A stretch of 64,000 bases of DNA from Octopus vulgaris (taxonomy: Eukaryota), in assembly GCA_951406725.2 (NCBI GenBank), contig OX597826.1, positions 70,432,001-70,496,000 of the forward strand, written 5' to 3'. Below, piece by piece: positions 3,342-63,800 of this stretch. The stretch's first letter is position 1. Each line of letters begins with the position of its first letter. The position numbers and the translations under genes were made by a program. A model generated the notes under the pieces. It made no database searches. It saw only the letters and a list, made by a program, of their open reading frames with translations, and had not been told where the DNA came from.

Positions 3342-6149
3342 TGTTACAATTATTTTGGTTTAAGATTATGAAAACAAAAAAACATTTTGTGTGATTATCT
3401 GTGTATATAAATATATATATGTATGCATGTTATATGAATATGCGTGTTTGCTTGTGCACATATATATATATATATATGTATATATATTCGTGCGTAGTTT
3501 CTTGTATATATATACTTAGAGGCGTGTATGTGTGTATATCCATGGATGAGTGCATGTGTATGTATGTTTGTGTGAGTCTGCATACTTAAATACTTACGTA
3601 AGAGTGTGTATAGATAAATAAAATAAACACTGACCTCCTTATATTTATACACACCAGTACGCCTATGTGTGTGTATATATATATATATATGTGTATGTAT
3701 GTGTATATACATGTATATATAATCTCCATAAGTATGCATGCTCCTCTGCATGTAAGTGTATGTGTGTATGGGTCTATGTTACCCCAGCCCACCTCCACAA
3801 AAATTGGAAAAAAATATGAAATGAAAATTATAAAAATAAATTTTAAGCAATTTATAACAATTATCTTTTTTTCCTCTTATTATTTCATTTCATTTCACAT
3901 CTCAGCAATATTTCTTTCTTCTTTTATTTATTTTTTGAAATAAAGATGTTCATTTTTTCTTTCTTTTTCTTTTCTTTTTTCCCTTTTTTTTTCCTTGAAA
4001 ATTCTAAGTTTTTCACTTTTACAAATGCATACACACATACATATACCCATGTATCTATAACCTTACGGATGATACAAATACAGTTTTTTTAAGTGGCCCC
4101 TCATGGACCTGTAACCATTACATTTCATCACATGTCAAAGGATATCTATTTCTTTACTACCCACAAGGGGCTGAACACAGAGAAGATAAACAAGGACAGA
4201 CAAATGGATTAAGTTGGTTATATCGACCCCAGTGCTTATTTTATCGACCCCAAAAGGATGAAAGGCAAAATCGACCTCGGCGGAATTTGAACTCAGAACG
4301 TAGCAGCAGACGAAATACCTATTTCTTTACTACCCACAAGGGGCTAAACACAGAGAGGACAAACAAGGACAGAGAAACGGATTAAGTCGATTATATCGAC
4401 CCCAGTGCATAACTGGTACTTATTTTATCGACCCCAAAAGGATGAAAGGCAAAAATCGACCTCGGCGGAATTTGAACTCAGAACATAGCTGTAGACGAAA
4501 TACCACTAAGCACTTCACACTGCATGCTAACGTTTCTGCCAGCTTGCCGCCTATGTCAAAGGATACCACCATCATCATCATTATCATTTAACATCTGTTA
4601 TCCATGGGTTGGATGGTTTGGCTAGGGCTGGTAAGCTGAGGGGCTGCATCAGACTCCAGTCTGATTTAGCATGGTTTTCTACAGCTGGATGCCCTTTCTA
4701 ACGCCAACCACTCCAAGAGCGTAATGGGAGCTTTTACATGTCACCTGTGCTGCTGGCACAGGTGCCAGTTGGATGACACCAGTATCTGCCATGACTACGA
4801 TTTCATTTGGCTTGATGGGTCTTCTACCCAAGTGCAGCATTTCATCAAGGGTCTCAGTCATTTGTCATTCCCTCCATGAGGCCCAACACTCAAATCATGC
4901 TTTTTACGTGCCACTGGCACAGGTGCAAGTTACGTGACACCAGTATTGGCCATGACAAAACAACACCGAACCCTTAAAACCTCCAAGATTTGGCTGAAAT
5001 TGACAAATATCTTCTATCTTTTACTTGCTTCAGTCATTAGACTGTGGCCATTCTGGAGCACTGCCTTGAAGAATTCTTTAAGTCGAATGAATTGAGTCCA
5101 TTACTTGTTTTTTTTTTAAGCCTGGCACTTATTCTATCAATCTCTTTTACTGAACTACTAAGTTGAGGGCACCTACACTATCTGTCAAGTGGTGGTGGAA
5201 GAATCAACGCAGACACACACTCACATATATGTATATATATATATATATATACACACACACAATGGGTTTCTTTCAGTTTCCTACTTTCAAATTCGCTCAC
5301 AAGGCTTTGGTAAAAGACACTTACCCAAGGTGCCATGTGCTAGAACTGAACCTGGAATGATGTGGTTGGGAAGCTAACTTCTTATTTCTTTATTCCCTAC
5401 AAGGGGCTAAACATAGAGGGGACAGACAAAGGGATTAAGCCGATTACATCAACCTCAGTGCATAACTGGTACTTTATTTATCGAACCCAAAAGGATGAAA
5501 GGCAAAATCGACCTCGGTGGAATTTGAAATCGGAGCATAACAGCAGACGAAATACTGCTAAGCATTTCGGCCGGCATGCTAACGTTTTGGCCAGCTCGCT
5601 ACCTTATATTTGTACACACAGGTACGCTTATGTGTGTGTGTGTATATATATACACACTCTCACTTCTTACCACACCTGCACCTGTAAGTATGTCATATTT
5701 CTGTGTAAGAAATTATTCACATGATCAGCATTTGCCCCAAAATACCTATTTCTTTACTACTCACAAGGGGCTAAACGCAGAGGGGACAGACAAACAGATT
5801 AAGTCGATTATATCGACCCCAGTGCATAACTGGTACTTATTTAATCGACCCCGAAAGGATGAAAGGCAAAGTCGACCTCGGCGGAATTTGAACTCAGAAC
5901 TTAACAGCAGACGAAATACGGCTACACATTTCGGAATTTGAACTCAGAACGCAGCAGCGGATGAAATACCACAAAGCATTTTGTCCGGCGTGCTAACGTT
6001 TCTACCAGCTCACCTCCAAAATACCTTTAAGATTTTACTTTCCAATGAAGTGTTTTCTTGTTGCTGTTGATAAAACAATACTCAATGCTAACCATAATTT
6101 AAACAGACTGCCTTGGGATAGATATGGAGGAAACCCCTGTTATTGACTA

Positions 6150-11998: not shown

Positions 11999-12184
11999 TT
12001 AGACACTTCTGCTAGATTTATCCTTTGTGAGTGTGATGTAGGCACTTTGAATGGTAATGAATTGTTTACTAGCAATTTCCTTCATTTTGGGGTCTTGGTG
12101 TCTGTCAGGGTGCCATTCCTTGACCAGTTTTCTGTAACTGCTTTTGATTTCTTGCAAAGAGGCGTTATGATGTAAACCAAGTAC
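11999..12184 (-). CDS. DNAJC22: DNAJC22/Wurst-like, coding exon 3 (J domain)
   Basis: Acceptor ttttggaacag|GTA; VLGLHHNASLQEIKSSYRKLVKEWHPDRH...QFITIQSAYITL contains the HPD motif; TAA stop; spliced CDS 1044 nt = 347 aa. Confidence 0.93.
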   Translation of the reverse strand, partial: VLGLHHNASLQEIKSSYRKLVKEWHPDRHQDPKMKEIASKQFITIQSAYITLTKDKSSRSV

Positions 12185-16273: not shown

Positions 16274-16743
16274 CTTGTAAGCGTTGTGCATGCCGTCGGA
16301 GTCAAATATCTTCCATACAGCTTCAGCCAGATTGTACCAACCGTATTGTGTACCATACTCAAAGAGAAACCAGATCGATTCTTTCGTTTCTTCCCATGCT
16401 GGTGACGCGAAAAACGTAGAGATTACTTCGGACAATTTTCGTTCTTCTCCGTTGATGTTTGTGACCGTAGCATTGTGACAAATAACCGAGACCCACAATG
16501 TAAGGTAGATAGAGCAGAATAATGTTATTCTTAAAGTTCGTTTCGGGCAACTGGTCCGAGAAGGACGAGGTGTTGTTTTGGTCCATTTGTTGCCCTTGTA
16601 GTTGAGAAGAGCCGTAGAAATCAGCGAAGAGTATATGATTTGGGTTGGATTGTTCCAATAGAAAGGAACTCCAAGAAAGGAACCAATGAGTGAGAGTTTC
16701 AAGTCGCCCTCTTGGTCACCAATGTTGGCTACCAGCATTACAC
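16274..16743 (-). CDS. DNAJC22: DNAJC22/Wurst-like, coding exon 2
   Basis: Acceptor ttttgctatattacag|GT joins in frame (YG-VMLVANIG...); open to ...DSDGMHNAYK|GTATTC donor; 470 nt, ends phase 0. Confidence 0.93.
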
Positions 16744-19700
16744 CTGTAATATAGCAAAAAAAATCAAGATGTAACTACCAAAAGACTGACCCATAACATT
16801 AACCAATAGAGTGACATCATATATAACGTTAAATATAACAGTTTGTCAGGGAAAATTTCAAGGATGCTGGTCTGTCTGAGTTCTCATGAGGAGCAGAATG
16901 CATAACCAGAATTAGATTAAGATTTTGTAACTCCCTAAGTTACAGCTATTGCCAGCCAATCGCCGTTGTCGTCATCAGTATCATTATCCTCATTGTCATC
17001 GTCCTCATCATCTCCGTCGTTATCATCATCGTCGTCGTCATGGTCATCACGTCCACTTTTCCATGTGTGCATGGGTTGGACGAAATTTGTCAAGGCAGAA
17101 ATGAATAAAAAAGGGGACAGAAAGCCACAGTAAGTCAAGCATGACAGCAATGAAAGCCAAAAGTACTTGATACAGGACACAGGATAAAACACAAAAACAC
17201 ACACACAAAAAAAAAGAGAAAAGTTAAAAGACCCTACAGAAAAAAATGAAAGGAAAGGGATCACAAGCATGTCAAGAGTAGGGTTGGCGAATATCAGGAA
17301 GCATGGAATTTCTGCTCTCAAAATTCAAATCCTGCTATGGTCAACTTTAACTTAGATCCTTTTGGGTTCCAGTCCCCAAAAGTTCCAATTAAGGGTGGTG
17401 TTGGTGGTGGTGGTGGTGGTGGTGGATTGGCAAAATTTTTAGAGTATCAGCTTGTGGTATCTATTTTGTCTCTGTACATTCTGAGTTCAAATTCTGCCCT
17501 GTTACTAAAAAACATTAACACTTCTGGCTGTGTGGTAAGTAGCTTGCTTACTAACCACATGGTTCCGGGTTCAGTCCCACTGCATAGCACCTTAGGCAAC
17601 TGTCTTCTACTATAGCCTCGGGTCGACCAAAGCCTTGTGAGTGAATTTGGTAGATGGAAACTGAAAGAAGCCTGTCGTATATATGTATATATATATGTAT
17701 GTGTTTATGTTTGTGTGTCTGTGCTTGTTCCCCCACTATCGCTTGACAACCGATGCTGGTGTGTTTACGTCCCCTTAACTTAGCAGTTCGGCAAAAAGAA
17801 ACCGATAGAATAAGTACTAGGCTTACAAAGAATAAGTCCTGGGGTTGATTTGCTCGACTAAAGGCGGTGCTCCAGCACGGCTGCAGTCAAATGACTGAAA
17901 CAAGTAAAAGAGATGAATATTAGCAATTTGAAAAACTTAAGGAAACGTGGTTTGGATTCGAAGATTTATGATCAAAGACTTTCTGCCTGTTTATCCACTG
18001 TATCCTTCATTTATCTAAGACAATAGGGCATAATTAGAGGAAGAATTTGCAGTTATTTCTAACATATTGAGCAACTTTTTAGAGGCTTTCTGTCCTTGGT
18101 CACCTATTTTTGATTCAGCTGTTTGCAGTTTGACGATTAAAATGTGTCTCAGCTTGCTGGAAATAGCAGCCAAATCTTCCTCAAATAAGGAAGGATACTC
18201 TTTTACTTGTTTCAGTCATTTGACTGTGGCCAATGCTGGAGCACTGCCTTTAGTCGAGCAAATCACCCCCTGGACTTATTCTTTGTAAGCCTGGTACTTA
18301 TTTTATCGGTCTCTTTTGCTGAACCACTAAGTTACAGGGACGTAAACACACCAGCATCGGTTGTCAAGCGATGTTGGGGGGACAAGCACAGACACACAAC
18401 ACACATACATATATATATATACATATATACGACGGGCTTCTTTCAGTTTCCATCTACAAAATCCACTCACAAGGCTGTGGTCAGCCCGAGTTTATAGTAG
18501 AAGACACTTGCCCAAGGTACCATGCAGTGGGACTGAACCCGGAACCATGTGGTTCATAAGCAAGCTACTTACCACACAGCCACTCCTGCGCCTATAGTCT
18601 TACATATATAAAGAGGTGTGATGGCCATAGCTGGAACATCTTCCATCATAGATCTTGGGTTGACTAAGGCAACAAAATACTATGCATCTCAATGAGGGAC
18701 CCTCTATACAATCTCTCGGCCTGCTAGAAATAACAGTCAAATCACACATGATCTTCACTAAAATGTGTTGAATATGTAAGATGACTCAATTTTCTGCTCT
18801 GCCCAAGAAAAGGTAGAATGGTCATGGCTAGAACGTCTGTCAGAAGATAATGATTTATCACAAGAAACCATAACTGATACAGAGATGTGGATCCATAGAT
18901 CAAATTTGGCTGTTTGAAAACTAGGCACAGGAGTGGCTATGTGGTAAGTAGCTTACTTACAAACCACATGGTTCCGAGTTCAGTCCCACTGTGTGGCACC
19001 TTGGGCAACTGTCTTCTACTATAGCCTTGGGTCGACCAAAGCCTTGTGAAATGGATTTGGTAGACGAAAACTGAAAGAAGCCTGTCATATATATATGTAT
19101 GTATTTGTGTTTATGTTTGTTTTTGTCCCTGCCCCCCACCATTGCTTGACAACCAAGGCTGGTGTGTTTATGTCTCCATAACTTAGCGGTTTGGCAAAAG
19201 AGACCGATAGAATAAGTACTAGGCTTACAAAGATTAAGTCCTGGAGTCAATTTGCTCGACTAGAGGTGGTGCTCCAGCATGGCTACAGTCAAAGAATAAA
19301 AGAATACATCAATTAGGGAATCTCTATGTGGTGGCTGATCCACTAAAAATAGCAGCTAAATCTCTCTCAAATTGCACTCTACCATCCAAGAGAAAAAAAT
19401 GACACCTTTGATAGGTTCCTTGCATATGGGATGGTCATTGCTGGAATACCTTTGATCACAAGGCCTACTCAGTCAACGTTTAGCCAAAGCTAAACAACAT
19501 TAACTGACTAATGACATAGGTCATTCTCGACCGAGGATGACCACCTACACAATTAAATTCATGCTATTGGTCATCAAATAGAGGTCACTAGAACCACATC
19601 TAAAACAGTTAACAACAAAAATTTTCACTGAATTTAGCACTAATTAATTATTATGGTACAGCAACTAATTATTATATTGAACCAATGACAGAAGGCATCT

Positions 19701-21301
19701 GACAGCAAAATCTGCCGCCTCTTAAAACCTTACAAAGCATGGCTGGAATGTTTTATTGTTTTATTTTTTGATTACAGGTCTATTAAATCAGTATTGACCT
19801 GGAACTAAACAACACCTACCATAAATCCTTGAGTATAATCTGCATTTTTCCCCGCAAAATTTAAAGATCAAAATCCCTGGTGCATACTGTATACGAGGTT
19901 AAAAATGAAAATTATTTTCTAAGCAATGTCCGAGTCTCTATTTGCTGTCCGGCAATGTTTATTCAGATGCATTATGTGATGTCGGGCGCAAAAAATGCCT
20001 TAAGCTAAGCCTGAAAGCAATGAAGTCATAAAAGAATCATCCATAACTTGCAGTAAGCAACATTTATTAAACATTATTACTGTTATTTTCTGCAAACAAA
20101 ATGCACAAAAAAGCTACACGTTTGCATTATGTTATATATACAATAATAATAAAGGATGTTACCGTATACAATTTTACAGGCCAAGGACGTTATATAGACC
20201 TCCTTGACTCAAGTTAGAGAAAGGGTGCATATTATACACAAGGTAGGTAGGTAGGTAGGTATGTAGGTAGGTGGGTAGGTAGGTAGATTGGTAGGTGGGT
20301 AGGTACGTAAGGCTGTAAACTGAAGTCTCAGTACTCTATCACTTGGTTGTTCTGCTTTTACTGGGGGTTTAAATCCAGCCAATGTGATAATTGGGACAGA
20401 GAGAAAATCAACAGAATAAATCTCTAAATCCTGTTTAAATAAAACATTTTAACATGTTTTACTGTCAACATAACAGAAGAGTTAAGAACTGACATGTCTG
20501 TCATGATCAAAGACTATCTTTGGATATGGATATATATATATACACACACGGAATTTAATAGGTCAGTATATTTTGTACATAAGTGCATAAATAGGCGTAG
20601 GAGTGAGACCCCAGGACTTATTCTTTGTAAGGCTAGTACTTATTCTATTGGTCTCTTTTGCTGAACTGCTAAGTTACGAGGACAGAAACACACCAGCATC
20701 GCTTGTCAAGTGATGTTGGGGGGACAAACACAGACACACAAGCATATACACACACATACATATATACATATATACGGCAGGCTTCTTTCAGTTTCTGTCT
20801 ACCAAATCCCCTCACAAGCTTTTGGTCAGCTCCAGGCTATAGTAGAAGACACTTCCCCAAGGTGCCACGCAATGGGAGTGAACCTGGAACCAAGTGGTTC
20901 GTAAGCAAGCTACTTGCCATACAGCCACTCATATATATGTATATCTATATGTACATGTGTGTGTGTGCATATGTATATATATATATCATGTGACCACATG
21001 ACCGACCAGTCCATCAGATGTAGTTACACATCGCTGGTCACAATACGTTCGCATTGTTTTAGCCTTCGAATGACGCCACCCCGCTGGCTAAGCGAGCAGG
21101 CCAACAGAAGAAAGAGTGGTGAAAGAGTACAGCAGGGATCACCACCCCCTGCCGGAGCCTTGTGGTGCTTTTAGGTGTTTTCACTCAATAAACACTCACA
21201 ATGCCCGGTCTGGGAATTGAAACCGCGATCCTACAATCACGAGTCCACTGCCCTAATCACTGGGCCATTGCACCTCCATGTATATATATATTTATACATA
21301 T

Positions 21302-21344
<43 letters not shown>

Positions 21345-21808
21345 AATATATATATGTGTATATATGTATGTGTGTGTGTGTGTGTGTGTGTGTATAATAC
21401 AAATAAAAAATGGAGAAACACATTAGTTGGTTTATCAGCTTTAGGATATTAGAATGTTGACTTTATTTATTCATTTAACAAAAACGACAACCTTAATCAC
21501 ATACATATATACATTATAATTCAATACATATAAGATAAGAATACAACTATAAAAACCTTTATATAAATTATTGGAATCATTATATATATATATAATGGTA
21601 TGTATTTACTTTTCTACACAAAAATTTATATAACTTTTCTATGAACCTTTCTACCAACCTCCCTACCTGACTACCAAGCAATTTTCCCACCTAACTACTT
21701 GCCTACTTAGAAATCCACCTTGCTACCTACCTACCTAACTACCAATCTGTGTACTTACATACTTTCCTACTCACCTAACAATATACCAACCTATGTATGT
21801 ATATATGC

Positions 21809-21839
<31 letters not shown>

Positions 21840-21950
21840 TGTATGTATGTATGTATGTATGTATGTATGTATGTATGTATGTATGCATGTATGCATGTGT
21901 GTGTATGCATGCAAGCATACAGGTTAGCAGGTAGATAGGTAGATAAATAG

Positions 21951-21987
<37 letters not shown>

Positions 21988-22197
21988 TTCCCAATTTATA
22001 TTCATGTTTGTTATTTTGTAATAATTACTGGTACCCTTATATATTACTATATATTATATCTTATATGTAGAACATAATATGTTATATGTATGTATATTAT
22101 TGTAATTATCAGTTTAGTAAATAAATAAATAAGTTAACATAATATAATGTCTAAAAGTTGATGAACCACCTATTGATCCCCTCCATTTTCTTATTGC

Positions 22198-22281
<84 letters not shown>

Positions 22282-22914
22282 GGGAGAATAAAAAAAACTC
22301 AGAAATAAACAAGGAGAGAAAATAAAGAGTGGCTAGTGGTCTCTCATGGCAAATGCTGGTCAGAGTGGTCACACAGTAGAGCTAGGAAGAAGGGGAGATA
22401 ATAAAATAGTGGTTATCCCAAAATGAAGATGGCATGCGTGTGTATAAGAGAGCATGTATGTGTGTGTGGAAGAGGGCTGGTGACCTTGACATGAGTGTGT
22501 GTATGTGTAGGTGTGTAGATGATGGTGTGGGGCTGGGAAGTGGTCATTGCTAGTGTGTGATGTGTATGGTGTGGTGATGTATGGTGTGGGTGGTGGTGTT
22601 GGGATGTGGGGGAGGCGAGAGTGGGGAAAGCAAGGGGGTGTGTGGGTTAGTCTGAGGGTGGGGTATGTGGGATATGTGGGATATATATGTATAAATATGT
22701 GTATATATATGTATATATATATATATGTATATATATAATAATAAATATTAGGGAAAAAATCCAAATTTACAGGGAAAAAATCAGATTTAGGATTAAATCC
22801 AATTTTATAGTAAAATATTATAAAATATTATTAGAGACAAAACCACTATTTTGCAAAACAAACAAGGAAAGACTTAATCAATACATAAAATTTTAATAAA
22901 TAGTCAAAAAACCG

Positions 22915-22957
22915 CCACTACAATTGTTTCTTGTCTTGATCGACAATCTTCAGGTGG
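22915..22957 (-). ncRNA. Mirror copy of the canonical hammerhead (sense to the DNAJC22 pre-mRNA)
   Basis: Exact reverse complement of 23880-23922 in the other arm of the fold-back. Confidence 0.78.
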
Positions 22958-23879
22958 ACTTCAATCTAAAATATCAATATTTTAAAATATAAAAATAATA
23001 ATTTTAAAATAATTGAAGTATGAATGAAAAAATATAAATATATAATCCATATATAACCTATATATAATCCATATATAATCAATATATAAACAATATATAA
23101 ACTAAAATAAACCTATCAACAATTAAATATGAAATATAAAATATAAAATATAAAATATAAAATATAAAATATAAAACAAAACAAAAAAATAATAATAATA
23201 TAATAATAAACTATATATACACCCATACACATATACCTAATTATATATAACCATATCTAACTACATACACTAAATCACACACCTATATATATATCCCTAT
23301 ACATACACATAAAAACGTCTAGGCAACTATAAATAAATAAAATAGCTAAATACTTCAACACAATACTTATTCATACTCCCACACACACACACATACAACC
23401 CACATTCACGCTCTAGAAAACGGACATCACTTAAAATTATGAACGGAGAAATGGAATAAATGGAATTAAAAATTATATTCACTTGGTAAAACGAACACTA
23501 CTTAAAAATTTGCCTAGACGTTTTTATGTGTATGTATAGGGATATATATATAGGTGTGTGATTTAGTGTATGTAGTTAGATATGGTTATATATAATTAGG
23601 TATATGTGTATGGGTGTATATATAGTTTATTATTATATTATTATTATTTTTTTGTTTTGTTTTATATTTTATATTTTATATTTTATATTTTATATTTTAT
23701 ATTTTATATTTAATTGTTGATAGGTTTATTTTAGTTTATATATTGTTTATATATTGATTATATATGGATTATATATAGGTTATATATGGATTATATATTT
23801 ATATTTTTTCATTCATACTTTAATTATTTTAAAATTATTATTTTTATATTTTAAAATATTGATATTTTAGATTGGAAGT

Positions 23880-23922
23880 CCACCTGAAGATTGTCGATCA
23901 AGACAAGAAACAATTGTAGTGG
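23880..23922 (+). ncRNA. Minimal type-I hammerhead ribozyme, canonical core
   Basis: CCAC-CTGAAGA-TTGTC gatcaa GACAA-GAA-ACAA|TTGT-A-GTGG; predicted cleavage after A23918. Confidence 0.8.
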
Positions 23923-24182
23923 CGGTTTTTTTGACTATTTATTAAAATTTTATGTATTGATTAAGTCTTTCCTTGTTTGTTTTGCAAAATAGTGGTTTTG
24001 TCTCTAATAATATTTTATATGTATATATATATATACATATATATATACATATATATATATATATAAATATATGGTTATCAGTAACAATATAGGGTGAAAT
24101 TAATTAATTTGGAATAATTATTAATTACACCAAGTAGATTTTGGCATGTAAAAGCCTCATTCGAGGAAAATTTAAGTAATAC

Positions 24183-24418
24183 TAAGCAATTAAGGGTTTA
24201 GCAACGAATTGCCTCACCACACACCGAATTTAGAAATAGCAGTCAAAGAGTTATAGCTATTCTTTCTACTAAAAGAGAGATCTCAGTAAAAACACAGCAA
24301 GTGCTGTGTTTTTACTGAGATCTCCTTTTAGTAGAAAGAATAGCTATAACTCTTTGACTGCTATTTCTAAATTCGGTGTGTGGTGAGGCAATTCGTTGCT
24401 AAACCCTTAATTGCTTAT
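24183..24418. repeat. About 235-bp near-perfect palindrome
   Basis: taagcaattaagggtttagc...cacagcaagtgctgtg...gctaaacccttaattgctta; diverged single arm near 38820-38930. Confidence 0.9.
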
Positions 24419-24614
24419 ATATAAATATATATATATATATATATCCCACATATCCCACATACCCCACCCTCAGCCTAACCCACACCCCACCCTTGCTTTC
24501 CCCACTCTCGCCTCCCCCACATCCCAACATCCCAACACCACCACCCACACCATACATCACCACACCACACATATATATGGATATATATACATACATACAT
24601 ACATATATACATAT

Positions 24615-24696
<82 letters not shown>

Positions 24697-24840
24697 TGAT
24701 GGATGGATGGGTAGATTGCAATATAGACAGAGAGAGAGAAAAAGAAAAAGAGTGAGGGTTTGAGAGAGGTATAGAAATATATGTTGATATATACAAAGAT
24801 AAGTATATGGGCAAATGGCTGGTGATATATATGTATGTAC

Positions 24841-24871
<31 letters not shown>

Positions 24872-24955
24872 TGTATGTATGTATGTGTGTGTATATATGT
24901 GTGTGTATGTATATGTGTGAATATATATGTGTGTGTGTAAATATGTGTATGTATG

Positions 24956-24998
<43 letters not shown>

Positions 24999-26061
24999 TT
25001 ATATATGTGTGTGTGTATTTATATCTCTATGTGTGTGTGTATGTATATATATATATATATATATATACATAGATATTTTCATATGTATATTAGAGATGGA
25101 TGTATGTATGTATGTATGTATACAGGTAAGTAGGTAAGTTGGTTGATAAGTAAGGTTGGTAAGTAGATGGATGGGTGGATGGATGGATGGATGGGTGGAT
25201 AGGGTTGAAGACATCATGGAGACAAATAGAGAGAACATATTGTGCTTGGGTCAATAGAGTGATGGTGAGAGAGTAGGAGAGACAGAAAGAGAGAAAGAGG
25301 AAAAGAAAGGAATGAAAGAGAGGGAGAGAGAGAGGGGGAGTGGTGTAGTAAAGGGGAGCAAGGTTGTAATGGCCAGGATGGAGTAATTGAGATGGATTAT
25401 TTAAAAATCGATTTATTTGCTTGGTTTTCCAGTCTTGCAAAATTTCCAGCTGTCTGACATGTCCAAACTTGTTACTGACTTAACAACAACAACAACAACA
25501 ATGACTCTGATGACAGCAACAATGACTTTGATGACAGCAACCACTACAACAACAATTTAGTCAGCAAAGTAGGTTCTGTGTGTTTGCTTGACCCGCAAGC
25601 AATAGGTGTCAAATCTCCAATGAAAAGGAATTAATAGATGATGTGGTCCTGCTGAGTTCCCTGAACATAAAAATGACACGGTGGTCACGGTTGGCATGCC
25701 TTTGATCATAGGTTTGTTCAACTAGGGTTAACCTGAGGCTACACACTACACCACTACACAGTGCTGGATTAGCCATTAAACAAATAAGCAGTCAGAGCAT
25801 CAAGGGAAGACGGGGCATGACAAAAATGGTAAATGGCTCAATAGTTAGGGTATTGCATTTATGATAATTGGCCCTCAAATAGTGGTTCTGGTTCAGCGGT
25901 CTAGTGGTGTGTTAAGTTCACAAGCATGTGCCCACAGTGGAGCCATGTGGCTCAGTGGGTAGAGTATTGAACTTATGATCGTACGATTGTGGTTTCGATT
26001 CCTGGATCAGGCGATGTATTGTGTTAATAAGCAAAACATTTCATTCCCTGTTGCTCTAGTC

Positions 26062-26227
26062 CAGTGGTTGCCAACCTCTTCACTACCAAGGACCCCTTTT
26101 ATTTAAAAGAGTTTTCCCACAGACCCCCAGAATATTGAAAGGTCTGTCAGCTCAGCATATTCACGGACCCTCAGTACTACCTTTGTGGATCACCAGGCAT
26201 CTGTGGACCAGAGGTTGGGAACCACTG
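26062..26227. mobile_element. hAT-type MITE inserted into a SINE
   Basis: CAGTGGTTGCCAACCT...AGGTTGGGAACCACTG with imperfect 8-bp duplication ctctagtc/ctccagtt. Confidence 0.75.
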
Positions 26228-26902
26228 CTCCAGTTCACTCTGATTGCAAAAATGAGTAATCCTGTGAGGGGTCAGCATCCCATCCAGGTGGGTAATTTAT
26301 ACACCATAAAATCAGGAAACCAGCCTTCATGATTTAGCATGACTCAAGAGGATAACTTTACCTTTACCACATGTTCATGAACAAAACACTTCATTTCAAA
26401 TTAGACCAGTCCATCTAGCTGCAAATGAGTTTCAACAATGGCTGGGAAGTTAACCCTGAAAACAGATTAGCATCCTGTGCAGGGGTGGTGAGTGTTGAAA
26501 TCTCAGCCACTTGTATACTATGGAAAACAGGTTACTAATAAACTATGGGTCCTAGGGTTCATAACAGGCCATTACTGTAACAGTGGTTGATGTTGTAGCT
26601 GATGTTATTGTTTGTGTTGTTGTTGAGGTAGTGTTGGTTACTATTACTGGATTAAGACCCATTGATTTTGGTGCCCCAATATATATATATATATATTGAT
26701 AAAAATGGTAAGACGACAAAAGAATGAAAGAGACCTTGATATTATGTAAATAGAGGGATTTATCTGTAAATATAATATGTGACAATTATTCGGTAGCCAT
26801 GATAAAACTCATTCAAATAGCGCTTTTGTCTTAATAATGGTCAATCACACACTGATTTCCCTTTGTATAACGGTCATTTTTCATAGTATTCTTCCAATGG
26901 CC

Positions 26903-26965
26903 TGATAACTGAAGAGATGGCGGCATGGATTTCCACCTCGGCATCTGAAACTCGGAGTTTTATCA
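26903..26965 (+). ncRNA. Hammerhead ribozyme-like motif
   Basis: TGATAA-CTGAAGA-GATG...CATC-T-GAA-ACTC g GAGT-T-TTATCA; 6-bp stem I. Confidence 0.68.
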
Positions 26966-28858
26966 TGGCTACCGAATAATTGTCGCGTATTACCCCAAAA
27001 GGATGAAAGGCGAAGTGGACCTCGGTGGAATTTGAACTCAGAACGTAAAGACAGATGAAATACTGCTAAGTATTTCACCCGGTATGCTAATGTTTCTGCC
27101 AGCTCACTACCTTAATAATCTTTTCTACTCTAGGCACAAGGCCCGAAATTTTGGGGGAGGGAGAGGCCAGTCGATTAGATTAACCCCCAGTATGCAACTG
27201 GTACTTAATTTATCGACCCTGAAAGGATGAAAGGTAAAGTCAACCTCAGCGGAATTGGAACTCAGAACGTAAAGACAGATGAAATGCCACTAAGCATTTC
27301 ACCCAGCATGCTAAGATTTCTTATTTCTTTACTGCCCACAAGGGGCTACACATAGAGGGGACAGACAAATGGATTAAGTCGATTATATCGACCCCAGTGT
27401 GTAACTGGTACTTATTTAATTGATCCCGAAAGGATGAAAGGCAAAGTCGAACTCAGCAGAATTTGAACTCAGAACGTAGCGACAGGCGAAATACCTATTT
27501 CTTTACTACCCACAAGGGGCTAAACACAGAGAGGACAAACAAGTACAGACATAAGTATTAAGTTGATTACATCGAACCCAGTGCGTAACTGGTACTTATT
27601 TAATCGACCCCGAAAGGATGAAAGGCAAAGTCGAACTCAGCAGAATTTGAACTCAGAATGTAGCGGCAGACAAAATACCGCTAAGCATTTTGCCCGGCGT
27701 GCTAACGTTTCTGCCAGCTCGACACCATACTGCGACAATAACAGTTGCCACTTAAATGATAGCAACAATAGCTACCACCACAACTGCTATGACAGCCACA
27801 ACAACAACAACAAGTTTTATACTCTAGGCACAAGGCCTGAAATCTTTGGGAAGGGGCCCAGTCGATTAGATCAACCCCAGTACACAACTGGTACTTAATT
27901 TATCTACCCCAAAAGGATGAATGGCGAAGTTGACATTGGCAGAATTTGAACTCGGAACGTAAAGACAGACGAAATAACTGCCACCATAATGATGATGATG
28001 ATGATGATGATGGATGATGATGGTGGTGGTGATGACGATAACAGGTACATCAACAAATAATAGCCATAATTAGAATAAGAGCCACAGCAATAGCTACATC
28101 GATAGCAACAATAACAGCAACAATATTGATATTGACGACGACAACAACAATAACCACCACCAACAATAACACCAACACCACCACCACCACCATCACCACT
28201 ACCACTACCAGCAGCACCACTACCACCACAATCCCTACCTCTTCCACCAATATCATCATTCCTACCACTACCATCGTTACCACCACAACTCCCACTACCA
28301 CAACCACCGCCACCATCGCCACCATCGCCACCACCACCATCAATAAATGTAAAGTTATTTAATGTATTTCTCTACATGATTCCTAGATAAACACTCGGTA
28401 AAGTCAGCTGGTGTATATACCACACTGATAACGAGTTAACAAGTTAACGAGAAAGCACTTACATGGTCGCTTGGCCTGCTTGAAACAACAGCCAAATCTC
28501 CTTCAAATTACAGACTATCATCTTAGTAATGGACACGACAGATAATGTGATCCTAAGTTCATAGCAACAAGACTAATGGAAGGGTCATGGCTGGAGTGTC
28601 TTTGATCATAAGTTTGCTCTATCAGATTGACCAATGTCTAAATAACAATAACAACAACAACTATCACTACTACACTGATAAAATAGTTAAAGCCCACCCT
28701 GTGGCCCTACCCTTTCTACCCTGTCTACCCTTCTATTATGTTTCACTCATGGTTTATCTTGATATTGGGAATAACATATGTTTTACATCAGTGGTTCTCA
28801 GCATTTTTTTTTCATCTATAGGTAAAAAAGGTAAAATGACCTCCTCATGTCATTCTGG

Positions 28859-29429
28859 TGGAGGCACATGGCCTAGTGGTTAGAGCAGCAGACTCACGGT
28901 CAAGGGATCGCAGGTTCGAATCTCAGACCAGGCGATATATGTGTTTATGAGCGAAAACACCTAAGCTCCACGCGGCTCCGGCAGAAGGTAATGGCGAACC
29001 TCTGCTGACTCTTTCGCCACAACTTTCTCTCACTCTTTCCTCCTGTATCTTGCAGCTCCCGTGCGACGGACCAGTGTCCTGTCCAGGTGGGGAACCTATA
29101 CGCCAAGGAAACCGGGAATCTGGTCCTTATGAGCCAGGTGTGGCTCGAGAAGGAACAACATGGCCTAGTGGTTAGAGCAGCAGACTTGCAGTCGAGAGAT
29201 CGCAGGTTCGAATCTCAGACCGGGCGATATGTATGTTTATGAGTGAAACACCTAAGCTCCACGCAGCTCCAGCAGAAGGTAATGGCAAAACTTCAGCTGA
29301 CTATTTTGCCACAACTTCCTCTCACTCTATCCTCCTGCATCTTGCAGCTCATCTGTGACAGACCTGCATCCCATCTAGGTGGGGAACCTATACGCCAAGG
29401 AAACCTGAAAACCGGCCCTTATGAGCCAG
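28859..29429 (+). mobile_element. Head-to-tail dimer of tRNA-derived SINE family D; second unit truncated at the exon-copy junction
   Basis: catggcctagtggttagagcagcagact..ggttcgaatctc occurs twice; full monomer at 62838-63143; related element 12998-13250. Confidence 0.87.
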
Positions 29430-29594
29430 ACAGTCACTCCAAAATGGCCAAAGTTGTGATAGCCTACATTGTGGTTTTTTGGTGGACTGTTTGGTATTCA
29501 TCATATTTATTTGAACAGAGATAACCAGGCTCTGGTGTGGTGGGCAACTCTGGCAGGCTGTGGAATTGGTTGGTTTAGGGACCTCTGGAGAATT
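29428..29594 (+). pseudogene. Inverted partial copy of DNAJC22 exon 1 (16 nt of 5' flank plus about 50 codons) inside intron 1
   Basis: Reverse complement of 30422-30590 with 2 substitutions and a 2-nt deletion (ATTCTGTGG to ATTGTGG, frameshift). Confidence 0.92.
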
Positions 29595-29601
29595 TCCAAG
29601 A

Positions 29602-29638
29602 CTATTGAAAAGGTTGCAAGATGCAACGAAAATTTTAG
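29602..29638 (+). ncRNA. Minimal hammerhead ribozyme-like motif (U3-A8 core variant)
   Basis: CTA-TTGAAAA-G-GTTGCA aga TGCAAC-GAA-AA|TT-T-TAG: stems I and II pair, stem III palindromic. Confidence 0.6.
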
Positions 29639-29737
29639 GAAAATAAAAATAAGAAATAAGGGGAAATTTTACTGGTGAGTGTATTACATTATAAGGCACA
29701 AAAAGAAAATGACTCTCCCCAGACACAACAGTGTACA

Positions 29738-30136
29738 CTCTCTTTTACTCTTTTACTTGTTTCAGTCATTTGACTGTGGCCATGCTGGAGCACCACCTTT
29801 AGTCGAGGAAATCGACCCCAGGACTTATTCTTTGTAAGCCTAGTACTTATTCTATTGGTCTCTTTTGTCAAATCACTAAGTTACGGGGACGTAAACACAC
29901 CAGCATCGGTTGTCAAGCGATGTTGGGGGGAACAAACACAGACACACAAACATATACACACACATACATATATATACATATATACGACGGGCTTCTTTCA
30001 GTTTCTGTCTACCAAATCCACTCACAAGGCTTTGGTCGGCCCGAGGCTATAGTAGAAGACACTTGCCTAAGGTGCCACGTAGTGGGACTGAACCCGGAAC
30101 CAAGTGGTTCGTAAGCAAGCTACTTACCACACAGCC
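29738..30136 (-). mobile_element. SINE family A copy between exon 1 and its inverted copy
   Basis: Reverse complement of the family A sequence; explains the spurious C-terminus of ORF 30047..30574. Confidence 0.9.
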
Positions 30137-30186
30137 AAAATTTATATTATGTGTTTGTGAGAGAAAGTCTAGAAGAATAAGCTTAC

Positions 30187-30574
30187 CATAAGCAGCAACA
30201 ATTGGTGTGAAAACAGCCACTACCAAAATCTTGAGACTTCCATAAGATTCCAGGAGTTCCGACGGCCAAGCAGAATAAAACAGATAAGCAAAGAGTGCCG
30301 AGATGAAGATCTGGCTTATGATTCTTTCATAAGTGATTGGTGGATGAGAATAAATCCGCTTCCGGTCTTTCATTTCTTCCACATAAAACTGGTCATTATT
30401 GGCACGGCGTACATAAAATGGAATTCTCCAGAGGTCCCTAAACCAACCAATTCCACAGCCTGCCAGAGTTGCCCACCACACTAGAGCCTGGTTATCTCTG
30501 TTCAAATAAATATGATGAATACCAAACAGTCCACCAAAAAACCACAGAATGTAGGCTATCACAACTTTGGCCAT
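30187..30574 (-). CDS. DNAJC22: DNAJC22/Wurst-like, coding exon 1 (TM2-like domain and TM helices)
   Basis: ATG at 30574; MAKVVIAYILWFFGGLFGIHHIYLNRDNQALVWWATLAGCGIGWFRDLWRIP matches the DNAJC22 N-terminus as I recall it; ends TAT G|GTAAGC donor; 388 nt, phase 1. Confidence 0.93.
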
Positions 30575-30599
30575 TTTGGAGTGACCGTCTCTGGTGGTT

Positions 30600-31460
<861 letters not shown>

Positions 31461-60834: not shown

Positions 60835-63800
60835 CCAAATCAAAATAGATGAACATCAATGGAATTTGTATGTTTGTGGTACCAGTGCCGATGGCATATA
60901 AGAAAGCCATCCGAACGTGGCCGTAGCCAGTACCGCATCGACTGGCCTCCGTGCTGTGGGCACATAACAAACACCATCCGATCGTGGCTGTTGGCCAGCC
61001 TCGTCTGGCACCTGTGTCGGTGGCACATAAAAAACACCATCCGAGCGTGGCCGTCTGCCAGCCTCGTCTGGCACCTGTGTCGGTGGCACATAAAATCACC
61101 CACTACACTCTCAGAGTGGTTGGCGTTAGGAAGGACATCCAGCTGTAGAAACACCGCCAGATCTGACTGGCCTGGTGCAGCCTTCGGGCTCCCCAGACCC
61201 CAGTTGAACCGTCCAACCCATGCTAGCATGGAAAGCGGACGTTAAACGATGATGATGATGATGATATAGCCTTTCATGAAAAGCATGTCTGGCCATAAGA
61301 GAAATATCACCTTGCTTGGAAATAAACGAAGGTTGGTGATAGGAAGAGCACCTGCCAACATAAAATCTGCCTCAGCAAATTGTCACTCACCCATGCAAAC
61401 ATGGAAAAGTGGACATTGATGATGATGTTCATAATGTATATATGTATATATATGTAAAATGGCACATAAAAAGCGCCATCTGAACATGGTCAATGCTGGT
61501 GCCTCCTGAATGGCTCCCATGCCGGTGGCACGTAAAAATACACCTGCTAGACTCTCGGAGTAGTTGGCATTAGGAAGGGTATCCAGCTGTAGAAACCTTG
61601 CCAGATCAGATTGGGGCCTGGTGCTGCCTACTGGTTCGCCAGTCCTCAGTCAAACCGTCCATCCCATGCCAGCATGGAAAGTGGACGTTAAATGATGATG
61701 ATGATGTCTCCCTTGTCTATGCCACCAATGTAAAAAGTTGGCAAGAAGCAGCACAGCTTGAAACCAGTGCCATTGCAAGCTTGTCATCAGAATGCAATGA
61801 ACCAGATGGTCTGGCTCTGGGTTGGTGAAAGGACAAATTTGACCAAAGTAAGATCGAAATTCAGTGCATAGAGCATCAGAGTAAGTCTAGCCAAGTCATT
61901 TAACCTGTTACTTTAAGTAAAGGTCAAGTTACCTTCGCGAGTCATGTTGACTAATAAGGGCTGGTCTCCCAGTATAAATTTCCCACCTGGACAGGATACC
62001 AGTCTATCACAGGATTACTCATATTTCCCAGCTGACTGGACTGGAACAACATGAAATGAAGGGTTGCCCGGTCCAGGTAAGATACCATAATCTTATGGTA
62101 ATGAGTCCAACACCCTAAACACTAAGCCTCGTGCCTCCACTCTGTTACTTTAAGGGTTAGTCCACGTTAGTCTGTAAGGAACATAGGGCCTGTTTCCTGT
62201 TTTCTCTCATGTGTATATATTCCTCCCTGGATGGGACGCTAGTCCATCATGAGATAACTCATTTTTACTGGAGCGCTGTGAAACGCAATGTTTTGCTTGA
62301 GAACACAACGCACCGCCCAGTCCAGCATTTGAAACTACAATTTTACGATCGTGAGTTCACCACCCTAACCACTAATCCACACAGCTAATTGCTTTAATGA
62401 CTCAGCTACAAAGTACGCACACACACACACACACATGCACACACTGCAAAAAATCACCACTTCTTTCAAAACAGAAACTACTTCAGTTCCAATCAGTTGT
62501 TGACCCCTGTACAAAGTTCAAGTGTGTTCCATACTGGAAGGCTGCTCATGCTTCAGAGATAGCGACTTTTCAAATGTGTTTTAAAATGCCAACCCGAGCT
62601 TTGCGAGCGAGTACTTCGTTGTCTCCCACACTTGATCTTTGTTGAGGAAGGGAGGAGGCCCGGTAGCTTATTATTGTAGCTGAAGTAGTTCATTCTTGTT
62701 TTGAAGGTGTTGGTAATGACTGTTTGATTTAAGAAGTTTATATTGCAACTGTGTGGTTTATGGTTCAATTCCACTGCATGGCACATTGGACAACTTGTTT
62801 TCTGCTATGGTCTCAGATTGACCAAAATTTTGTTAGTGGAAGCACATGGCCTAGTGGTTAGAGCAGCAGACTCACGGTCGAGGGATCGTGGGTTCGAATC
62901 TCAGACCGGGCTATGTGTGTTTTTATGAGCAATACACCTAAGCTCCACGTGGTTCCGGCAGAAGGTAATGGCGAACTTCTGCTGACTCTTTCGCCATAAC
63001 TTTCTCTCACTCTTTCCTCCTCACCTGCATTTTGCAGCTCACCTTCGACGGACCGGCATCCCGTCCAGGTGGGGAACCTATACGCCAATGAAACCTGGAA
63101 ACCGGTCCTTATGAGCCAGGCATGGCTCGAGAAGGAACAAACAAAAATTTTGTTAGTGAATTCTGGTTGGTAGAAATTATACAGAAGCCTAGTTGCATGC
63201 GCACGTGTGTGTGTCTGTCTGTCTGTCTATCTCTGTGCTTCAACATTGACACTTTTGATGACAGTAATGTCTGTCTCGCATAAATTGTACAGAGTAGCCC
63301 AAAAGTAGGTTTGTAGTTATTCAACTATCTCTTTCGCATTCATATATTAACAATTTAGATCTTAATTATAAAAAAAATATGAAACCATTATTCTATGCTA
63401 ATTTAGTTTAATTTTGTCAGCGTCCCTTTTCAGTTTGTAAGACAGAAATTTAGATGTAATAAAACGTTTTAAAAGAAATTTAAAGTGCTTACATGATAAC
63501 TGTAAACTTATTTTGGGCCACCTTGCATGTTCCATAACTTGGCGGCCCAACATATGAGGACTAGTGGAGTTAAATATCTAACATGTAAACAAGCATGGAA
63601 AAAATGAACGTACAGACGATGATGTGAACGAAAACTGTTGCTAGACTTTCTCTCTCTCTCTGTCCCTCACACACACAACAACAACCAGCTTCTTTCAGTT
63701 TCCATCTACGGAACTCACTCACAAGGCTTTGGTCATCCTGGGGTTATAGTTGAAGAATCTTACCGAAAGTGTCACACAGTGAGACGGAATCTGAAACCAT

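Follow-up and report, generated by a model that had tools for sequence, protein, structure and literature searches.

Inverted copy of a DNAJC22 exon piece in intron 1

The window (the whole stretch of 64,000 nt of Octopus vulgaris DNA that was analysed) contains the chaperone gene DNAJC22 on its minus strand. The first coding exon, at 30187-30700, was identified from its TM2 domain (E 2.4e-13), an RNA contig and its splice sites; its ATG lies at 30574 and its donor after 30187, it extends at least 81 nt past 30700, and it is 96% identical to DNAJC22 of Octopus bimaculoides. Exon 2 lies at 16274-16743 (minus strand; tblastn and splice sites), and the last coding exon, which holds the end of the J domain region, lies at 12002-12184 (minus strand; tblastn and acceptor). 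Intron 1 spans 16744-30186 (13.4 kb) and hosts the insertion described here. A contig from run X14 (organism A) covers 30185-30700 without a break and continues for 81 nt more; guessed to be RNA, it departs from the genome at the splice donor and is therefore a spliced transcript, reaching at least 190 nt beyond the end of the copied stretch.

The plus strand at 29428-29594 is the reverse complement of 30422-30590, a part of DNAJC22 exon 1 that covers the beginning of its coding sequence, with 165 of 169 positions identical. Two substitutions, at 29432 and 29534, and one 2-nt deletion separate the copy from its source, and the substitution at 29432 corresponds to decay of the only CpG in the copied segment. 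A genome search with the copy as the query matched only the copy and its source. The copy reads in the sense of the gene on the plus strand, and hence lies antisense inside the DNAJC22 pre-mRNA. The original prediction described it as an inverted copy of the exon lying next to a hammerhead ribozyme motif. The inverted orientation, the intronic position and the adjacency are borne out, with 7 nt (29595-29601) separating the copy from the motif at 29602-29638 on the same strand, but the copy is an internal piece rather than the whole exon, as 30422 lies mid-exon and 30590 is neither an exon boundary nor the 5' end of the transcript.

On the left, the copy abuts the second of two tandem SINE-like repeats (29159-29429, plus strand), labelled as such from its sequence appearance rather than from a library match and 86% identical to 28866-29137 and 85% identical to 62838-63122. 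A comparison of tails showed that this repeat is without the last ~20 nt present in the first tandem copy (28858-29158). Of the microhomology proposed for this junction, AG is exact, whereas CCAG requires a 2-nt offset. The inner junction (29595-29598, plus strand) consists of one extra T followed by a CA/CCA overlap between source and element. The source begins ~690 nt beyond the right end of the insertion, a span that includes an unrelated and very abundant SINE-like repeat of ~400 nt (29739-30137, minus strand; from repeat searches), which is possibly older or younger than the insertion. The host piece most likely came with the insertion of the adjoining Penelope-like element; foreign DNA is found at this junction in further members of the family as well.

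The Penelope-like element family and its hammerhead

The sequence at 29597-29731 (plus strand) is a terminal repeat (pLTR) of a Penelope-like element. It starts 5 nt upstream of the hammerhead, is 135 nt long, ends at the shorter of the two 3' end points of the family (+135) and lacks a target-site duplication. The predicted AATAAA in its tail is present at 29642-29647; the host gene runs on the other strand. The repeat is multicopy, with 803 candidates in the genome and 94-98% identity among the 40 that were scored, and a 34-nt hammerhead pattern gave 1,998 exact genome matches and none for the reversed control. Its long copies carry a reverse transcriptase (RT) and a GIY-YIG endonuclease (EN), in agreement with the Penelope-type terminus that had been proposed.

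The motif at 29602-29638 (plus strand) is a minimal type I hammerhead of the U3-A8 variant with a predicted cut after 29635, recognised by sequence, fold and descriptor. It is laid out as a stem I of 3 bp, the U3-A8 core, one unpaired base, a 6-bp stem II, GAAA, a palindromic AATT and the closing strand of stem I. In its U3-A8 core, its palindromic stem III and the single base left unpaired ahead of stem II, it matches the definition of minimal hammerheads in the available part of PMC4209133. Folding recovers stem II and, in a 51-nt context, stem I as well (z -2.2). A descriptor scan gave one match in the window and one in 40 shuffles, and Rfam at its gathering threshold gave no match anywhere in the window. 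The same source ascribes low activity to such minimal hammerheads (PMC4209133), and Penelope insertion in vitro is described as proceeding without a need for hammerhead cleavage (PMC11167929, in part).

In longer copies the region upstream of the repeat holds a CA-rich untranslated stretch of ~700 nt and then, further upstream, the GIY-YIG, a Cys-rich linker and the RT, so that in element order a frame with the YVDD RT motif is followed by a GIY-YIG ~700 nt upstream of the terminal repeat, with a Cys-rich CxxxxCxxC stretch preceding the GIY-YIG motif. The Pfam match to GIY-YIG (E 0.0026) falls short of the curated cut-off, Pfam gave no match for two frames of the copy L145 and weak matches only for two of five relatives, and GIY-YIG or RVT_1 annotations occur in a minority of the members of the protein atlas neighbours at 0.95. 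Every long copy that was read has stops or frameshifts. The family is an EN+ Penelope-like element with the Neptune/Nematis-type layout and, on that layout, a probable member of the clade; a zinc-finger-like motif between RT and EN is given as a trait of the Neptune/Nematis clade in part of PMC8557442.

Most insertions carry a second, inverted arm arranged head-to-head with the main arm (90 of 155 copies, and 55 of 80 further copies), and a target-site duplication of at least 7 nt, with a mode of 12, was found in 63 of the 155. In 77 of 80 classified pairs, and in 51 of 55 pairs of the second set, the two arms differ in their 3' end point, which lies at +135 or +191 counted from the hammerhead. 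In the more frequent class, 56 nt of the inverted arm are absent from the main arm, so that the former cannot be a fold-back copy of the latter, which suggests that each DNA end primes separately. Priming would thus occur at each of the DNA ends and start from two fixed sites in the RNA, a reading with apparent support at genome scale from these arm ends and consistent with the extension of both strands by purified Penelope protein (PMC11167929, in part). The main arms of 158 of the 235 copies begin no more than 12 nt upstream of the hammerhead, in a sample biased toward intact hammerheads, which places the window junction at the preferred 5' end of the family.

The hammerhead had been given a part in the mechanism, and the arm ends do not bear this out. 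The junction with the exon copy lies 39 nt upstream of the predicted cut, and among 138 inverted arms only three end within 2 nt of that cut, with no pile-up there; 16 stop just before it, in the palindromic stem III region, and 50 extend beyond the start of the hammerhead. With the junction away from the cut and few arm ends at it, the hammerhead is a mark of the element and a passenger without a part in shaping the exon-copy junction.

Several further features of the family were observed. The 5' ends of main arms are concentrated 10 nt upstream of the hammerhead, with an extra G there in 21 of 34 cases (for example L097, L105 and L117), which suggests a capped RNA start inside the pLTR. Two copies, L325 and L328, run on into a next unit. 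Perfect tandem arrays with units of 37 nt and 90 nt stand at or beside Penelope junctions (L018 1611-1984 and L017 1749-2065), suggesting repeated slippage or jumping during synthesis. Intronless host-like frames adjoin insertions of the family in L328 (turned; 1250-1738) and L166 (turned as fetched; 3-905), and by eye we take these to be fumarylacetoacetate-hydrolase-like and sulfotransferase-like. The family ORF contains a long asparagine-rich stretch before the RT (L324 1941-3019 and L325 2098-2878), which recalls the N-rich inserts of rotifer Penelope elements (PMC3846280, in part).

Foreign DNA at the junctions of other copies

A total of 235 other loci (L002-L030, L081-L140, L171-L236 and L241-L320) was surveyed for local host DNA at the element junction. 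The copies were picked by hammerhead patterns or by similarity to the window copy, which favours short copies with intact ends, and lie mostly on contigs C1-C8. Flanks were scanned over 5 kb per side at 96 loci, 3 kb at 80 loci and 1.5 kb at 59 loci, so that sources farther away are missed. The first 155 loci were scanned at an identity of at least 90% and then rescanned at 80%, and the 80 new loci were scanned at 83%. The first scan at 90% or more returned only the window and the ambiguous locus L103, and L128 appeared at 80%.

A clear inverted local host copy at the junction was found in none of the 235 other copies (one-sided 95% upper bound 1.3%), which speaks against the proposal that the element offers a general route to inverted exon copies. 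Two copies hold local host DNA in direct orientation between two element arms. L128 contains 64 nt with 58 of 66 positions identical to a source 690 nt beyond its left end (at about 5977-6042), and L244 contains 31 nt with 28 of 32 positions identical to a source 641 nt beyond, 882-913 nt upstream of the hammerhead. The source in L244 follows an acceptor-like motif and that in L128 precedes a donor-like motif; a frame over the L128 source gave no protein match, which is a weak test, and no gene evidence was found there. Capture distances are alike, at 690 nt in L128, 641 nt in L244 and ~690 nt in the window, where the distance spans the ~400-nt SINE-like repeat, and this likeness may reflect chance or resection length. 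Random anchors gave no local capture in 450, and 2 of 235 against 0 of 450 is not significant (Fisher p 0.12); the bracketing of host DNA by element arms is a stronger argument than the count.

Other inserts have sources of a different kind. L261 contains 124 nt of the family's own ORF between its arms. L204 (G000:C1:168769843-168769904) carries ~60 nt of the 5' flank of the L240 copy, which lies 795 kb away on the same contig (donor at G000:C1:169565433-169565494), and the pair probably represents a Penelope 5' transduction whose donor can be traced. The inserts of L261 and L204 point to RNA templates, indicating that RNA jumps or transductions also occur in the family. Neither was counted as a local capture, nor was L304, which has a SINE inside.

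L103 has a direct duplication of 100-125 nt (95-97% identity) at the 5' junction of a longer copy, with its sources upstream of the hammerhead at distances of 2446 and 679 nt; it was also left out of the count, as either copy may be the source. Other candidates set aside were L243 (an inverted match of 26 nt at 88%, next to a TA repeat), L084 and L187 (weak matches of 29-36 nt), the 3'-side matches of L083, L135, L002 and L204, and L211 and L217, which look like decayed element sequence. L088 was rejected as a parallel to the window, being an older hairpin split by a SINE. In a background of 0.96 Mb, inverted local duplications without a hammerhead junction were found at five loci, some of which are likely transposon ends.

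Origin and possible consequences of the exon copy

The template named in the original prediction was either the host transcript or neighbouring DNA; capture together with the insertion stands, and the evidence leans to DNA. The explanation towards which the analysis inclines, as probable by a little, is a single integration event: the completed cDNA would have used resected genomic DNA close by as a template, priming on it and copying the exon piece. The element endonuclease would cut at about 29732, and reverse transcription from the right DNA end would copy the 135-nt repeat nearly to the usual 5' end of the RNA. Resection would have bared the DNA strand to which the cDNA is attached, and at ~30420 on that strand the free 3' end of the cDNA would anneal over 2-3 nt, after which the element RT or a host repair polymerase would lengthen it by 169 nt. 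The extended cDNA would join the left end at the AG inside the SINE tail, with the loss of ~20 nt of target and of the usual 12-nt duplication, and the host piece would replace the second, inverted element arm that is typical of most insertions.

This DNA-templated capture is favoured because L128 and L244 hold foreign DNA bracketed by two element arms at similar source distances and because, if the main-arm cDNA was the primer, these two copies and the window all used the strand exposed by resection. In templated insertions, priming on the other end gives direct copies and priming on the own end gives inverted copies (PMC7165422, in part). The absence of an RNA hallmark and the position of the source 0.7 kb from the insertion in a 2.8-Gb genome also favour it, as do precedents in R2 and L1. 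R2 is described as snapping back onto its cDNA or nearby rDNA before 5' joining in part of PMC11371274, and three L1 insertions with DNA templated near the site are described in part of PMC11702581. Against it stand the equal polarity that a jump onto the DNAJC22 pre-mRNA would give, the RNA-type jumps to which L261 and L204/L240 point, and the direct rather than inverted captures of L128 and L244, whose sources are possibly transcribed. Polymerase-theta inserts are typically 3-30 bp and close to the break (PMC7165422, in part), and the window insert is longer and farther away.

The choice of DNA or RNA as the template was assessed further from the copy itself. The G at 29534 had been proposed as the possible record of an already edited RNA. 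The facing source base, 30482, is a C on the plus strand in contigs of organism B (X5, 49.7 of 98.2 depth) and organism C (X16, 4.83 of 13.1 depth), both of which extend past the copied stretch; X5 is guessed to be DNA and the kind of X16 is unrecorded. The G matches this genomic allele and is therefore no evidence of an edited template. Both alleles occur at about equal depth at 30251, 30380 and 30482 in contigs of organism B, and at 30380 and 30482 also in organism C, making a shared polymorphism in DNAJC22 exon 1 possible. The copy shows no RNA hallmark in the form of a splice junction or an end at the transcript 5' end, although a short copy of nascent RNA is still compatible. Polarity does not decide, as the minus strand is both the strand of the mRNA and the DNA strand attached to the cDNA.

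Divergence was compared between the two parts of the insertion. In the element, 5 of 136 positions depart from the family majority and 3 of 136 from the nearest sampled copies, and the exon copy differs from its source by one or two substitutions in 165 together with one small deletion. The age comparison gave P=0.46-0.73 on the rate of the nearest copies and P=0.016-0.06 on that of the family majority, so that the ages fit one event on the former and are in mild tension with it on the latter, a tension eased by CpG decay.

The alternative is that the element's reverse transcriptase, on reaching the 5' end of its RNA template, switched to nascent DNAJC22 pre-mRNA tethered at the locus and copied 169 nt of it; this is considered unlikely, yet it has several points in its favour. 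Its polarity fits (exon sense, then element sense), such a jump is expected at the template's 5' end, where the window junction sits, RNA-type captures occur in the family (L261 and L204), and same-orientation L1 chimeras arise via template switching (PMC13174262, in part). The source is moreover a coding exon, which makes up a small share of the neighbourhood, but the window was chosen for its exon source and so this status weighs little. The copy has no splice junction and does not stop at the transcript 5' end, its sole A-to-G difference matches a DNA allele, and nothing points to an exonic source for the local captures in L128 and L244. A two-step history, judged somewhat less likely again, would comprise an ordinary insertion, perhaps head-to-head, followed by a break at the palindromic centre, the loss of the left arm and a templated insertion of the exon piece. 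Head-to-head pairs are common in both sets of copies and their centre lies at the same position, there is no duplication and the end of the SINE is missing, comparison with the family majority makes the exon copy seem a little younger than the element, and the background contains inverted local duplications at five loci without a hammerhead junction. However, the captured DNA of L128 and L244 still lies between two arms, indicating that capture at integration does happen, while CpG decay is alike in both parts of the window insertion and two events would be required.

A further single-event version is improbable. In it, instead of a second element arm being made, the 3' end at the left DNA end would enter the exon region, use the other strand as its template and then be connected to the cDNA. 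The differing 3' points of paired arms (77/80; 51/55) imply that each end primes alone, purified Penelope protein extends both strands (PMC11167929, in part) and the AG overlap at the left junction fits, but strand invasion would have to reach across the break into duplex DNA. Sequence cannot separate this version from cDNA priming on resected DNA, and an mRNA template is impossible for it, having the wrong polarity. An assembly artefact, or a mis-joined sequence private to the assembled haplotype, is very improbable. Depth is 0 over 29446-29543 in all four runs compared, a hole that proves nothing: two of the runs are from other organisms (B and C), one is RNA, and one (the DNA run X24 of 2026) was read to 3%, too thin for single-copy DNA. 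Three further DNA runs of organism A, outside the four compared, contain 0.78-0.82 of the words. Against an artefact, the junctions are typical of the family, and of the two substitutions that, with a deletion, set the copy apart from its source, one matches a natural allele and the other is a CpG decay. In organisms B and C the single-copy exon DNA is covered and the copy interior has zero depth, which hints that the copy is young or private. The idea of a donor copy once inside exon 1, giving a 5' transduction as in L204, was rejected because it needs a gene-breaking insertion that was later lost tracelessly.

ADAR edits long duplexes, and does so heavily in coleoid cephalopods. In the predicted minimum-energy fold of the DNAJC22 pre-mRNA, 166 pairs form between exon and copy, with the 5' splice site in a loop, and this predicted, near-perfect exon-intron duplex of 166 bp is a candidate editing substrate. 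It would contain 33 coding adenosines, of which 25 are non-synonymous if edited. One RNA contig (X14) shows no T-to-C difference across 30422-30590, which is a weak negative, and contigs drop minority variants. The window contains 14 inverted pairs of at least 100 nt within 3 kb, mostly repeats, and the predicted exon-copy duplex differs from these in that one of its arms is coding. Intron 1 also contains a young hairpin at 22819-24019, with arms of ~510 nt that are 99% complementary and 183 nt apart; its ends resemble a dispersed repeat, and it would form long dsRNA in the DNAJC22 pre-mRNA.

Capture as a genome-wide source of editing sites appears minor. The analysis nonetheless provides evidence for something new, namely that a Penelope family performs locally templated capture in the germline, with two clear cases in 235 copies in addition to the window, and such capture constrains the poorly known last steps of Penelope integration. 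A broader and tentative proposal, considered unlikely, is that octopus Penelope insertions pick up nearby host sequence rarely but recurrently, possibly from nascent transcript, that an exon source yields editing-complementary sequence in an intron in one step, and that clusters of new recoding sites in the TM2 domain of DNAJC22 would be seen in carriers of the young allele. Should the insertion be polymorphic, a comparison of carriers and non-carriers would be a direct test of whether a new duplex suffices to create recoding or to disturb splicing, and if the proposal is true, the locus would be a natural experiment on the birth of cephalopod recoding sites. A literature search of incomplete coverage turned up nothing published on Penelope elements capturing local sequence, nor on editing sites arising in this way.

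Neither the element nor its hammerhead is unusual, and retro-insertion junctions with templated DNA are already known for L1 and R2. As far as the available parts of PMC8557442 and PMC4209133 describe them, Neptune/Nematis-type EN+ Penelope elements share with the octopus family the order of RT then GIY-YIG, the CxxC linker, 5' truncation, the head-to-head arm, a tail at one end and the minimal U3-A8 hammerhead with an unpaired base, whereas in the window the inverted arm is replaced by host DNA, and the octopus tail is ~56 nt rather than 30-40 nt. R2 snap-back and L1 local templating, in the parts of PMC11371274 and PMC11702581 available, share near-site DNA at the 5' junction, short microhomology and the lack of a normal duplication; the octopus case differs in belonging to another class of retroelement, in being germline and fixed in the assembly, and in its coding source 0.7 kb off. 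Templated insertions of microhomology-mediated repair share the direct and inverted classes, made by the other and the same resected end, respectively, but are mostly 3-30 bp or less than 100 bp from the break in the portions of PMC7165422 and PMC8421209 available, whereas the octopus captures are 31-167 nt long and 640-690 nt away. Chimeras of L1 with cellular RNAs (PMC13174262, in part) share host sequence, in sense, at the 5' end of the element, and Adineta Penelope elements (PMC3846280, in part) share the capture of host sequence by Penelope machinery; in these two systems RNA from elsewhere or whole genes between pLTRs are captured, whereas the octopus source is local and its copy without an RNA hallmark.
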